The translations under genes and the position numbers were made by a program. Below, piece by piece: positions 3,074-58,555 of a stretch of 64,000 bases of DNA. Below the pieces are notes generated by a model. That model was not told where the DNA came from. It ran no database searches and worked only from the letters and a program-made list of their open reading frames with translations. Location: the NCBI GenBank assembly GCA_016214655.1, contig JACROC010000002.1, positions 67,801-131,800 on the forward strand, read 5' to 3'. This DNA comes from Candidatus Harrisonbacteria bacterium (GTDB lineage Bacteria; Patescibacteriota; Minisyncoccia; UBA6257; 02-FULL-45-10c). Each line of letters starts with the position of its first letter. The stretch's first letter is position 1.

Positions 3074-3089
3074 TAAACCTATCTCAATT

Positions 3090-3368
3090 CTAATCTCCTG
3101 AAAGCCGGCCACAAAAATGAATTATTCCCTTATTTCTTTGGTTCCTGACGCTAACCAAAATAACATGCTGGGTAATATTGCCGAGGTCCGGCTTAAGATT
3201 TTCTAAAACATCCAACACTTCAGCGCGATTTTCTGCCTGTTCAACCGCGGCGTTATCATTTGGCGCGTAGATTTTTTCAATGGAAAAATCTATAATCTCT
3301 CCCTGGGTTACAAATGATATAAAGCCATATTGTGCTAAATATAAATGTCCTCGATGGCCCTTGCGCAT
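3090..3368 (-). CDS. Hypothetical protein (92 aa)
   Basis: ORF only; a terminator hairpin lies downstream. Confidence 0.4.
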   Translation of the reverse strand: MRKGHRGHLYLAQYGFISFVTQGEIIDFSIEKIYAPNDNAAVEQAENRAEVLDVLENLKPDLGNITQHVILVSVRNQRNKGIIHFCGRLSGD

Positions 3369-4350: not shown

Positions 4351-4827
4351 TCAATCGCTGTTCTTATTGGAAGACGAACTACCGGATCCCTTGCCCATGA
4401 CCAACCCCAACAATAAAAGAAAACCGCCGATCATCAGCTTAGTCTGATCCCACTCTGCCCCGCCAGATACAGTCAAAAGCAATGAATTATGGAGTAAATA
4501 TGTTCCATAAATAAGTGAAAGCCGTCCAACTGCAACACTAACGAGCATCAAGAGTGATAAAGCTCCTCCGCCAAGCAATCCGAGGAGCGCACCAGCTACC
4601 GCGCCAGCTTTTCCTCCGCCGCTCTCGCTGCCGACAAGACCGCCGGTAACAGCTCCGCCAACTGCAAACATTAATGTAGCTAAACCAACCACTAACCCAA
4701 TCAAAGCCGAAGTCACTACATACCACCAGAATAGAAAATTAGTGCTTGTCAAAAAAATCTCCGGCCAATTGGTCGTGCGGAACAAGTAAAGAAATCCGGC
4801 ATAAATGGCCGCCAACAAGATTCCCAC
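4351..4827 (-). CDS. Hypothetical Gly-rich membrane protein; GTG start with an AAGGAGG RBS
   Basis: TM helices and a Gly-rich loop (GGAVTGGLVGSESGGGKAGAVAGA). RBS aaggaggcacaaGTG at 4825-4827. Confidence 0.55.
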   Translation of the reverse strand: MGILLAAIYAGFLYLFRTTNWPEIFLTSTNFLFWWYVVTSALIGLVVGLATLMFAVGGAVTGGLVGSESGGGKAGAVAGALLGLLGGGALSLLMLVSVAVGRLSLIYGTYLLHNSLLLTVSGGAEWDQTKLMIGGFLLLLGLVMGKGSGSSSSNKNSD

Positions 4828-4950
4828 TTGTGCCTCCTTTGATTAGGATTTCAAACGACTATGATTAAAATAACACCAAACAAAATCAAAGTCAATCCTT
4901 ATTGTACATATATAATTAGATTGTAAACACTTTTCCGCCATCGCCTCCAC

Positions 4951-5100
4951 TCTATAAATACCCGAAATTATGTTCCGTGCGGCAACTACGGAGCGCCAAA
5001 TTGCTGGGTCTTACTATGTAAGAATTTGGCGTGAGGCGTAGGCGGCGTCAACCGCTGGAGTTGGCGAACGCCGGTGCCGTCAGGAATATAATTTCGGGTA
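4951..5100 (-). ncRNA. Candidate structured cis-regulatory RNA, copy A, in the 5' leader of the 4827 membrane-protein gene
   Basis: GC-rich island homologous (~75% identity) to copy B at 5827..5957. Hairpins gccaaatt..aatttggc and cttac..gtaag are preserved in copy B with different sequences (compensatory changes). An 18-bp long-range stem pairs 4959-4976 with 5083-5100. Confidence 0.55.
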
Positions 5101-5163
5101 TTAAGACCTGAATGATCCCACCGCCAGCCCGAATGTCGGAAAAGCGTCAACAATCCGTTAAGA

Positions 5164-5775
5164 TTATACAACCTTATATAAGTTATTTTCTTTTATATAT
5201 TCAGAAACGCCCTTAGATAAATATTGACTAACCGGCTTGCCGCTGGCTATCAATGAACGTACATCGGTACTGGAAAAATTTGACGGGTCTAAATTTCTTT
5301 CCAACACCATAACATTTTTAGGCAAATTTTCCGGCAAAGAGATTCCTGGCCGGACAAGCACTATAAAATTAGCTTCTTTATATAATTTTTCGCCATTCAC
5401 CCATTTGGTTTTTATATCATTAAAACTGTCAGAACCAACTACAAAATAAAATTCAAAATCCGGATACTGATTTTCCAATTCTGTTTTAGTTTCATAAGTA
5501 GTGGTCAGCTTCGGACGATCCAATTCTAAAGTGGGTATTTTTATCGGCACCTTGGCATCCTGAAATAATTCCTTGATTAAAATTTCTACCATTTTAAACC
5601 GATGCTGTCCGCTGACACTCATAGCCTTATCGTGCCGGTCGGCAGATGGCATCACCCAGATCTCATCGCAAGGAAATTTTTTAAGGACAGAACGGATAAC
5701 CGAAACATGGCCTAAATGAGGCGGATTAAACGCCCCTCCAAAAATAACTATTCTTTTACCACTATTCTTTGTCAT
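5164..5775 (-). CDS. nadD: Nicotinate-nucleotide adenylyltransferase
   Basis: 'IVIFGGAFNPPHLGH' is the (H/T)xGH nucleotidyltransferase motif of NadD. The internal ATG (MTKNSGKR...) was preferred over the longer ORF extending to 5847. Confidence 0.85.
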   Translation of the reverse strand: MTKNSGKRIVIFGGAFNPPHLGHVSVIRSVLKKFPCDEIWVMPSADRHDKAMSVSGQHRFKMVEILIKELFQDAKVPIKIPTLELDRPKLTTTYETKTELENQYPDFEFYFVVGSDSFNDIKTKWVNGEKLYKEANFIVLVRPGISLPENLPKNVMVLERNLDPSNFSSTDVRSLIASGKPVSQYLSKGVSEYIKENNLYKVV

Positions 5776-5826
5776 TTTATGATTATCAAGCCAAAAATTT
5801 ATTTCGGCAATCTCCGCCGTCCTTTT

Positions 5827-5957
5827 CCTACCGACACCGGCGTTCATCGACTCTTGCGGTCAGCGCCGCCTACGCTTCACCGCGATTTTTCGCTTCGCGA
5901 AACCCAGTAAATCGCAATTCCGTAATTGCCGCACGAAGAATAGTTTCGGATATTTAC
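5827..5957 (+). ncRNA. Candidate structured cis-regulatory RNA, copy B, in the 5' leader of the histidine-phosphatase gene
   Basis: Homologous to copy A. It has hairpins gcgattt..aaatcgc and ttcgc..gcgaa at the positions of copy A's hairpins. It shares the conserved strings cgccgcctacgc, acccag and ttgccgcacg. Confidence 0.55.
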
Positions 5958-6036
5958 ATAAAAAAATGATTGCTTTCCATCGAAATTTCTTTTAAAATAT
6001 AGACGGAACTTAGTTAATTCAATAGGGAAAGCAAAG

Positions 6037-6819
6037 ATGAAATGGCCGCGGAAGCTGATCCTTATCCGGCACGGCGAATCTGCTTATAATCTTATGAAAA
6101 AACAGAAGGAGTCAGACCCGGACTATAAAGAATTCAGGAAGGCATATGAGGAATTTGAAAGAGACGGCTTTCGCAATGAGCTCGCCCGCCAACTGGCGGA
6201 AAAACTGAAAGAAAAATGCGATGTCGGAGTAAGCGATCCGGAAACTCCCCTTTCTCCCGAAGGGCATCGCCAAGCTTTAGAAACTGGAAAAGGCCTGTCT
6301 GTTCATTCCCGGCTTCCTGATGTCATTTTCGTTTCTCCATATGTCCGAACTCAGCAAACGCTCGCTGGATTAGTAAAAGGCTGGCCAAAACTGGGAACGG
6401 TCAAAATTATCCTAGATGAACGCATCCGGGAGCGGAATATCGGCTTATTGGAGATATTCAACGACTGGCGAATATTAAATGTGCTTTATCCGGAGCAAGC
6501 CAGACTGCACGCACGGCAAGGAAAATTTTATTACCGCTATCCGCAAGGAGAAAGCATTGTGGATGTGCAATCGCGAAACCGGCAATGGTTCCAAACCCTT
6601 ACCAGAGATTGGGCCGGCAAACGAGTACTAGTGGTATCCCATCACCTGACTATCCTTAGCATCCGAAGCCTACTGGAACGCTGGACTCCAGAACAATTCA
6701 TTGATGTGGATGAAAATCACTCTCCGAAAAATTGTTCATTAACTGTTTATCGCGGAGATCCGAAACAAGGCACCGACGGCAAACTTTGCCTCGAAACCTA
6801 TAATCAAGTTTTCTATTAA
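6037..6819 (+). CDS. Histidine phosphatase family protein (phosphoglycerate-mutase-like)
   Basis: The 'LIRHGES' RHG catalytic motif sits at the N-terminus. Confidence 0.75.
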   Translation: MKWPRKLILIRHGESAYNLMKKQKESDPDYKEFRKAYEEFERDGFRNELARQLAEKLKEKCDVGVSDPETPLSPEGHRQALETGKGLSVHSRLPDVIFVSPYVRTQQTLAGLVKGWPKLGTVKIILDERIRERNIGLLEIFNDWRILNVLYPEQARLHARQGKFYYRYPQGESIVDVQSRNRQWFQTLTRDWAGKRVLVVSHHLTILSIRSLLERWTPEQFIDVDENHSPKNCSLTVYRGDPKQGTDGKLCLETYNQVFY

Positions 6820-8065: not shown

Positions 8066-8665
8066 TTAACCGCGGTCTCTAAAGAGAAGGAAGGTTTCGA
8101 TTGAAAGAGAAATAACGCCACTGCGCACCATTTCCTCTACCGCCCTATCTCCGTCGCCTGGATTGATATTTACTGCCCTAGAACCGTCAGAGAGAAAATA
8201 AGTCTTGAAACCCGCTCGTACAGCGCTTAGCGCCGTAGCTTTCACGCAATAATCAGTAGCCAAACCGCCGACATAAACCTCTTCCACACCCGCCACCCGT
8301 AAAACCCTTAACAAATTCATGCCAATATCAGTCACCCCATCAAAGGCAGAATATCCGCCATCATCATTAAGATCCATGCCCTTAGAAACGACGATCGCCT
8401 GTTCTACCTTAAGATCTTTATGAAATTTCGCGCCTTCAGTATTCTGTACACAATGCGGAGGCCACAAACCACCGCCAGTGTTAAAGTGCCTTGTTTCTGC
8501 CGGATGCCAATCACGAGAAGCGATAATTATCCAACCCTTTCGCAAGGCAAAATCTGCCATCCGATTAAGCGGTTCAACCACTTTATCGCCGTCTTTCACG
8601 GCCAATGCTCCGCCCGGACAAAAATCATTCTGTACATCCACCAAAATCAGCACTGCCCTTGCCAT
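8066..8665 (-). CDS. pncA: Nicotinamidase / pyrazinamidase (isochorismatase family)
   Basis: 'LILVDVQNDFCPGGAL' is the PncA motif. The start is at MARAV, preceded by aaggaggcaaagATG. Confidence 0.85.
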   Translation of the reverse strand: MARAVLILVDVQNDFCPGGALAVKDGDKVVEPLNRMADFALRKGWIIIASRDWHPAETRHFNTGGGLWPPHCVQNTEGAKFHKDLKVEQAIVVSKGMDLNDDGGYSAFDGVTDIGMNLLRVLRVAGVEEVYVGGLATDYCVKATALSAVRAGFKTYFLSDGSRAVNINPGDGDRAVEEMVRSGVISLSIETFLLFRDRG

Positions 8666-8793
8666 CTTTGCCTCCTTTTTTCCTTTTTCGAGGAACGTTG
8701 TCATATTACCTATGGGCCACGCCCCTCGTCAATCCTGTTAGAGGCCGCGAGAGCTCACAGCGAGCTTCTGCCTCTAACGGGATCAACCTTACT

Positions 8794-56130: not shown

Positions 56131-56589
56131 TATTTAAAAAATCTAACTCCTATCAACCACTCCACTAAAATAAAAACAAGCTAGTATGTTTTGTAGAGCA
56201 ACAGTGAGTTTATTTTTTCTGCATCATAAAAACGGGTTACTGTGCTTTGTAGAGAAACTACGAAACCCAAACTCCATCAACCAAACTAAAAAAGGTTTAC
56301 TTGTTTATCGTGCAGTAACTACGGAGCCGCGATTTGCTAGGTTTGTTTTGCGAAGCAAAACAAAAATCGCGGCGAGGCGTAGGAGCCGCTTGCCGCAGGA
56401 GCAAGCGGACTCCGGTACTGTCAGATAAATAAGTAAACCTTTTTAAGAAAACTTTCTAGTTATCCCAACCTTATGCGACCCGATATAAATATCGGATAAG
56501 CAAATCGAGACTTAAGGTTCCTCGATCAACACCTTTGAATATGCTTTCGCATACTATCGTTCTCCATCAAATATAAATATTTGATTTTT

Positions 56590-58555
<1,966 letters not shown>

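Follow-up and report, generated by a model that had tools for sequence, protein, structure and literature searches.

Three copies of a palindromic repeat family with a conserved three-way-junction fold on a Candidatus Harrisonbacteria contig

In a stretch of 64,000 nucleotides (nt) of Candidatus Harrisonbacteria DNA (assembly GCA_016214655.1, contig JACROC010000002.1, positions 67,801 to 131,800; the whole stretch is referred to here as the window), the nadD gene is flanked by two related elements of approximately 150 nt, copies A and B, which lie in opposite orientation. A preliminary description, made by reading the sequence, had presented them as homologous structured RNA elements in the leaders of divergent genes and had proposed that they might sense nicotinamide adenine dinucleotide (NAD) or ADP-ribose. 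When the two regions were aligned in inverted orientation with MAFFT (4920-5130 on the minus strand versus 5800-5990 on the plus strand), column identity was 77%, and all conserved blocks quoted in that description were present. Similarly, a repeat search recovered an inverted pair at 4955-5086 and 5825-5956 (132 nt, 72% complementary), as well as the long-range closing stem that had been described for copy A, at 4957-4984 and 5075-5102 (28 nt, 86% complementary). The elements are not limited to these two copies. A mismatch-tolerant search of the window with the conserved blocks revealed a third at around 56290-56435, designated copy C. A covariance model built from 13 copies and run with the filters off found exactly three copies in the window, with E values of 1e-22 to 1e-34, and the next-best matches (E about 1e-5) were the reverse strands of the same three loci.

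Pattern scans of genome contigs and metagenome contigs matched only contigs of Candidatus Harrisonbacteria and other Patescibacteria, apart from a few chance matches. The fetched contig loci carry L-numbers below; L003, L004, L008 and L013 proved to be chance matches, as did the only match in viral contigs. Taken over all fetched loci, the pattern scans and the covariance model together gave 55 copies, of which 48 were distinct. The repeat family was found here only in Candidatus Harrisonbacteria and close Patescibacteria. Copy density reached three in the 64-kb window, three in the 11-kb locus L056 and at least nine in one metagenome-assembled genome. The copies in L056, where density is far above that of the window, lie at 3077-3231 on the minus strand and at 5990-6143 and 8593-8747 on the plus strand, that is, after a sigma-70 gene, after a reverse transcriptase (RT) gene and inside alaS.

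Alignment of the 48 distinct copies revealed a conserved secondary structure. Standard pairs filled 95.3% of the pair cells, as compared to 70% in shuffles, and both sides had changed at 44 of the 56 pairs. The covariation score was 0.627, versus 0.176 for shuffled alignments and about 0.1 when the pairing partners were slid. Hairpins that differ between copies A and B and still pair had previously been taken to indicate a conserved RNA structure and not a decaying repeat; this pattern held in the 48 distinct copies from other contigs, and the frequencies of standard pairs and double changes bear out the conclusion drawn from it.

The consensus fold is closed by P1, a sequence-variable stem of approximately 16-22 bp, which is followed by a conserved 3x3 internal loop (GUG/NNA), the 5-bp P2 and a three-way junction. 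From the junction, P3 continues as an invariant UACG/CGUA helix, an internal loop, a 10-bp helix, a GCUYGG bulge and an apical hairpin of the form C-GNA-G or C-GNNA-G, while P4 carries a GCNGGAG loop. An additional outer stem, P0, encloses copy A. The termini (P1 and P0) are the least conserved parts and the core is the most conserved, the reverse of a classical miniature inverted-repeat transposable element (MITE). The ends pair with copy-specific sequences, and a CGAGC/GCGAG end motif recurs only in one clade. A further helix suggested by alifold ("helix 5"), in which the GCUYGG bulge pairs with the apical loop, was not adopted; it showed little covariation and was inconsistent across loop variants. 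In comparisons with shuffled sequence, copy A folded with z scores of about -8 to -9 on both strands and copy B with z scores near 0 on either strand. Copy B has kept the core helices and has largely lost the closing stem P1.

The fold under selection is that of the strand opposite to the one on which the motifs had first been read. In the helices of the 48 copies, G·U pairs outnumber C·A mismatches by 94 to 15 on the selected strand. On the strand used previously, the helix mismatches of the first 13 copies were mostly C·A (22, versus 5 G·U), and the helices of copy B contained 8 C·A and 3 other mismatches. The G·U:C·A ratio was 33:5 in copies lying opposite to both neighbouring genes, 19:1 in copies co-oriented with both and 42:9 in the rest. 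Thus, the excess of G·U pairs tracks the element and not the host genes, and is not a mutational bias linked to transcription or replication. The alifold consensus energy was -88.7 kcal/mol on the selected strand, as compared to -69.4 kcal/mol on the other, and on the selected strand the apical loop took the form C-GNA-G in 32 and C-GNNA-G in 8 of the 48 copies (40/48 together). On the basis of this evidence, copies A, B and C were assigned the boundaries and strands given in Table 1.

Table 1. Positions of the three repeat copies, the parts of copy A and the features of the nadD locus in the window.
Feature	Position	Strand	Basis and remarks
Copy A (winA)	4954-5104	+	covariance model 146 bits, E 4.5e-32; minimum free energy (MFE) -74 kcal/mol, z -8.1; consensus structure
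Copy A, P1	4957-4976/5083-5102	+	consensus structure
Copy A, internal loop	GTG 4977-4979 / TCA 5080-5082	+	consensus structure
Copy A, P2	4980-4984/5075-5079	+	consensus structure
Copy A, P3a	4987-4990/5037-5040	+	consensus structure
Copy A, P3b	4994-5002/5023-5031	+	consensus structure
Copy A, bulge GCTGGGT	5003-5009	+	consensus structure
Copy A, P3c	5010-5014/5018-5022	+	consensus structure
Copy A, P4	5041-5052/5061-5072	+	consensus structure; loop GCTGGAG
Copy B (winB)	5807-5957	-	107 bits; decayed, same subfamily as copy A
Copy C (winC)	56287-56445	+	153.7 bits, E 7e-34; third, intact copy; motif matches
P0, 5' arm of the outer stem enclosing copy A, with conserved C-rich loop sequence CATCGCCTCCACTCTATAA	4919-4941	+	23 nt, 83% complementary
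P0, 3' arm, preceded by conserved TAAGACCTGAATGATCCCACCGCCAGCCCGAAT	5133-5155	+	repeat search and covariation
Insertion of 277 nt relative to L052	4903-5179		alignment of window 4815-5215 (-) with L052 3585-3712
nadD, 203 aa	5164-5775	-	Pfam CTP_transf_like 3.3e-19; exact match to a protein named NaMN adenylyltransferase of Candidatus Harrisonbacteria
Promoter-like TTGACT-17-TATTTT with preceding TG, for the 158-aa membrane-protein gene	4895-4867	-	lies between copy A and the gene
Promoter-like TTGCCG-17-GATAAT, for nadD	5810-5782	-	lies between copy B and the nadD start at 5775

Rfam 15 contained no relevant match at the gathering threshold, at E <= 10 for window positions 4800-6100 or at E <= 1 for five copy-bearing loci, in agreement with the earlier remark that the elements belong to no described riboswitch class. 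Similarly, a literature search found no paper describing such an element in the Candidate Phyla Radiation (CPR) or Patescibacteria. The collection of homologues and the covariation check that had been proposed gave a divided answer: covariation was far above that of shuffles, but the homologues turned out to be a multi-copy repeat in unrelated contexts.

L052 is the closest nadD locus (NadD 81% identical); there, nadD and the 158-aa gene are separated by a spacer of 59 nt, which represents an empty site. Relative to it, the window carries an insertion of 277 nt made up of P0, the conserved C-rich loops and copy A, with the direct repeat ATAAGG on both flanks. This insertion provides the last two codons of nadD and its stop codon. 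L052 does have a copy upstream of nadD, in the orientation opposite to that of copy B and with nearly the same P1, and the nadD loci L053 and L055 (NadD 70% and 65% identical) have no copy. The apparent association with nadD is therefore not borne out, since the closest nadD loci lack the element after nadD or lack it altogether, and nadD is not functionally tied to the flanking copies A and B.

The proposal that both copies lie in 5' leaders also did not hold, because promoter-like sites are located between each copy and the gene assigned to it. The site preceding the 158-aa gene is conserved in L052, which is without the element at that place, and the 3' end of copy B overlaps the promoter-like site for nadD. 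The longest open reading frame (ORF) of nadD (5164-5847) runs 72 nt upstream into copy B (5776-5847, minus strand); the start at 5775 gives the usual N-terminus and an exact match to the database protein of 203 aa. An extended -10 sequence (TGTATAAT, 5163-5170) that had been suggested to drive transcription through copy A overlaps the nadD stop codon and lies within the insertion that is missing from L052.

Composite units of the copy A type, as found in the window, were present in 7-8 other contigs with entirely different neighbouring genes. P0 covaries and its loop sequences are conserved in these 7-8 contigs, and near-identical P1 sequences recur in unrelated gene contexts. Other copies nest in outer hairpins with a related loop motif. 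At L018 and L040, the conserved CATCGCCTCCA flank on the 5' side of the element is interrupted by a further GC-clamped hairpin (CCCCCACATAAATACTTATGTGGGGG), which is bordered on both sides by a duplicated ATCCAT. The loci L030 (4960-5107) and L020 (8545-8692) share four upstream genes and a 99% identical element and differ in their downstream genes, which places a synteny breakpoint at the element.

Copy C is antisense to the 16S rRNA gene region, approximately 170 nt past its 3' end. The Rfam small-subunit rRNA match on the minus strand (window 56600-57150 region) ends at 57148, and a sequence resembling the 16S 3'-terminal helix (GTCGTAACAAGG...GGATCA) follows about 490 nt further on, at approximately 56600-56660 on the minus strand. 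A match to group-II-D1D4-1 (56874-56950) lies between the two, which suggests an insertion close to the 3' end of the 16S gene. No CCTCC anti-Shine-Dalgarno sequence was seen after GGATCA, although genes in the window have AAGGAGG-type sites before their starts. No tRNA or tmRNA was found in the window.

The genes next to the copies are unrelated to one another. They include those for CorA, HrcA, GrpE and DnaK in L007, a sugar transferase and a pilin-like gene in L009, and a sigma-70 gene and the RT gene of a diversity-generating retroelement (DGR) in L056. Seventeen copies are oriented opposite to both neighbours and 10 in the same direction as both, and the rest are mixed. The sense strand was G-rich, as judged by the GC skew of the flanks, at 21 copies and C-rich at 21, and 46% of the flanking coding sequence lay on the strand of the element; there was no bias with respect to GC skew. 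Many copies occupy an entire short intergenic spacer, starting 0-7 nt from a stop codon. Copy pairs within 1-2 kb of each other were always mutually inverted (5/5 pairs, a small sample): copies A and B around nadD, 5245-5397 (+) and 6156-6308 (-) around hrcA in L007, and the pairs in L009, L025 and L040. The DGR-type cassette, consisting of bAvd and an RT of approximately 330 aa with LGNLTSQ and YADD motifs, was seen at L058 4639-5993, L056 5001-5987 and L016 969-1919; thousands of Patescibacteria proteins belong to this RT family, with identities of about 70-80%.

Three copies lie in frame within coding genes. The mnmA copies of L010 and L031 agree in both site and frame, and alaS holds one in L038/L056, in a frame that differs from that of the mnmA copies. 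Pfam searches confirmed MnmA and AlaRS, with the HUP-domain match of MnmA split into two stretches. All three in-gene copies are stop-free. Stop-free copies numbered 10, 3 and 9 of 45 in the three sense frames and most copies contained stops, so that an open frame was rejected as a general property of the element. Because stop-free frames are uncommon among the copies, those within genes look selected to be translatable, and the insert, whose reading frame stays open, is probably translated. The frame-0 translation of the in-gene copies of L010 and L031 is Cys- and Arg-rich (CVSCGNYGxLKCxxFC...RRRR), probably as a by-product of constraints on the RNA or DNA. A protein-level search with the frame-0 translation returned only four short, probably spurious ORFs and no catalogue of in-gene insertions. 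A second, unrelated palindromic repeat of about 150 nt (MFE -69.8 kcal/mol) was seen at L010 4780-4944, L042 6455-6573 and L010 3824-3879. In mnmA it is in frame and immediately adjoins the 155-nt element on the 5' side, and there are intergenic copies elsewhere (84% identity over 122 nt), which suggests that there are several repeat families per genome.

The repeats of about 155 nt behave like non-autonomous mobile or selfish DNA of the type of MITEs or Rickettsia palindromic elements (RPEs). As in MITEs, they are small, non-coding and multi-copy, differ in presence and absence between relatives, and occur as the same element in unrelated contexts. As in RPEs, a palindromic repeat of approximately 100-150 bp is found in frame within unrelated coding genes with the ORF kept (mnmA in L010/L031 and alaS in L038/L056). 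We therefore consider it probable that the three window copies are members of a hitherto undescribed family of RPE- or MITE-like palindromic repeats that is recognized as a folded single strand. The strand in question would be either RNA or single-stranded DNA (ssDNA), and the factor recognizing it would act in trans and be encoded elsewhere. Such a factor would read the folded strand, because conservation is seen in the core and in the fold of one strand, whatever the host transcription or GC skew, and not in the termini, which vary; a classical transposase that reads conserved terminal repeats would be an unlikely agent. At nadD, two copies of one subfamily would have landed on either side of the gene, copy A arriving within the 277-nt composite unit and rewriting the last nadD codons, with copy B now decaying. 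Neither copy would sense a metabolite.

Several observations do not sit easily with a mobile or selfish repeat. No transposase, partner insertion sequence (IS) or other mobilizing enzyme was identified among the fetched loci, few of whose ORFs were annotated and in which no systematic transposase search was made. No target-site duplication was established; TAA is present at both ends in 20 of 44 copies and may be the element's own sequence, and the A/T-rich ends made the element boundaries ambiguous in the flank test. The termini differ among copies, unlike the terminal inverted repeats of classical MITEs, and copies of one genome are only about 70-75% identical, with no sign of a recent burst. 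In addition, orthologous copies are far more conserved than expected of neutral sequence. Between the two mnmA copies, which show compensatory changes in P4, identity is 82%, as compared to 56% at nearby third codon positions of mnmA, and the order hrcA-element-grpE, with the element in the same orientation, is kept between genomes whose HrcA and GrpE proteins are 65% and 48% identical. Both observations point to selection in place, which is not expected of a purely selfish, dead insertion, and conservation so far above neutral sites may be compatible with an RNA function at the level of the host.

A structured RNA module or small-RNA family of use to the host would exist as transcripts in the sense of the selected strand, started at a promoter of its own or at a neighbouring one. 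A dedicated RNA-binding protein or RNase would mediate its action, for example in the processing or stability of mRNA or as a decoy or scaffold, and its repeat-like spread would be secondary. Such a module would explain why selection is strand-specific whatever the orientation of the host gene, why strong conservation of loops and junctions goes together with covarying helices, and why copies are kept at orthologous sites over deep divergence. A TATAAA box directly before P1 in the window-type copies would suit it as well, as would GNA/GNRA-type loops and tandem G·A motifs, which are typical of functional RNAs. However, three copies lie in frame within coding genes, many are situated 0-8 nt from neighbouring ORFs with no room for a promoter or terminator, and neither is conserved across copies. 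P0 covaries though its 5' arm is upstream of the TATAAA box, and both the empty site in a close relative and the decay of copy B also speak against a host function of this kind, which we regard as rather unlikely. It is distinctly unlikely that the three-way-junction fold is the working part of a new, small structure-guided element kept at orthologous sites, whether as a tiny RNA of ribozyme or intron type that is cut out of the mnmA and alaS transcripts or as a recognition module in an undiscovered CPR-specific system for RNA- or ssDNA-directed mobility or processing. Mobilization as ssDNA, in the manner of IS200/IS605-derived PATEs, REP/RAYT or attC sites, in which one DNA strand folds and is cut and joined by an HUH or tyrosine enzyme, would account for a one-strand fold that is selected whatever the direction of transcription. 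Variable termini around a conserved internal structure would fit recognition by structure, and the commonest apical loop, GCGAAGC with its C-GNA-G variants, matches a very stable DNA mini-hairpin motif. Elements that depend on the lagging strand normally show an orientation bias, and its absence here with respect to both GC skew (21:21) and gene strand argues against mobility of this kind. Inverted pairs within 1-2 kb of one another also count against it, and no Y1/HUH gene was seen among the fetched loci. We judge this mechanism improbable.

A link to a retroelement, with the repeat acting as a SINE-like (short interspersed element) partner of the DGR-type RT or as a small intron removed from host mRNAs, was considered because the element in L016/L056 starts 2 nt after the RT stop codon in the same orientation and because the in-gene copies, like homing introns, are placed where essential genes are conserved. 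In JACPTS, the RT ortholog beside bAvd is not followed by the element, a single RT was present among 437 ORFs near copies, and neither poly-A nor target duplications of variable length were seen. An intron would have no need of the open frame that is kept in the in-gene copies. The juxtaposition in L016 appears coincidental, given an RT family that is widespread in Patescibacteria, and a retroelement origin is very improbable. The metabolite-sensing riboswitch or cis-regulatory leader of the preliminary description draws on the conserved, covarying structure and on the two copies that adjoin nadD, the other NAD-metabolism genes of the region having been named in that description only. Against it, the selected strand is antisense to the genes named there, and promoter-like sites are found downstream of the elements. 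Copies occur in both orientations near unrelated genes and inside the ORFs of mnmA and alaS, and nothing ties the element to NAD metabolism. The orthologous spacer of L052 and the nadD loci of L053 and L055 are without it. No expression platform was found: no terminator-like site adjoins copy A or B, and the flanks of the copies have no common feature. A riboswitch or leader was rejected on context, strand and the empty site, and is hardly credible.

If the three copies are indeed members of an RPE- or MITE-like family, then the ultra-small genomes of the CPR would have structured palindromic repeat families of their own. These repeats would remodel gene ends, as at the C-terminus of NadD, mark synteny breaks and add segments of about 52 residues to MnmA and AlaRS; to our knowledge, such behaviour has been best documented for Rickettsia. 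The combination of clean covariation and strict strand specificity makes the family a good case for asking how elements of this type are recognized and maintained. It also offers a practical lesson, in that a repeat can mimic a riboswitch when covariation is strong and metabolic genes are near.

Each of the closest known systems shares part of these properties. Riboswitches and leaders such as the nadA (NAD+) riboswitch have conserved junction and loop nucleotides and covarying helices, as does the element, which in contrast has no consistent position in 5' untranslated regions, gene association, orientation or expression platform and no Rfam match. REP/BIME sequences with RAYT and the IS200/IS605-derived PATEs are, like the element, apparently recognized as folded single strands with a strand-specific fold. 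However, REPs are simple hairpins of 20-40 nt, and PATEs are oriented with a bias relative to replication and have hairpins that are separate and subterminal; neither feature was seen in the element. Bacterial MITEs and RNA-folding intergenic repeats (ERIC, BOX, Correia/NEMIS, RUP and SPRITE) are likewise small, non-coding, multi-copy and palindromic; they lie in spacers and at gene ends, can change the 3' ends of genes, differ in presence between relatives and occur nested in each other. Classical MITEs differ in that their terminal inverted repeats are conserved, their target duplication is defined, and both correspond to those of a partner IS, whereas in the element the termini (P1 and P0) are the most variable parts and the interior is the most conserved. 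RPEs are palindromic, measure about 150 bp and are inserted in frame in genes unrelated to one another, and they have been described as encoding a conserved peptide (PMC10969869). Like the element, they occur in several copies per small, reduced genome, both in intergenic positions and in frame in unrelated essential genes, with more than one family per genome, and for both no mobilizing enzyme is known. The likeness is one of functional analogy and not of sequence comparison, and the hosts belong to unrelated phyla. Most copies of the element are not ORFs, and it is set apart from RPEs by its branched three-way-junction core, its invariant loops and its very strong covariation.

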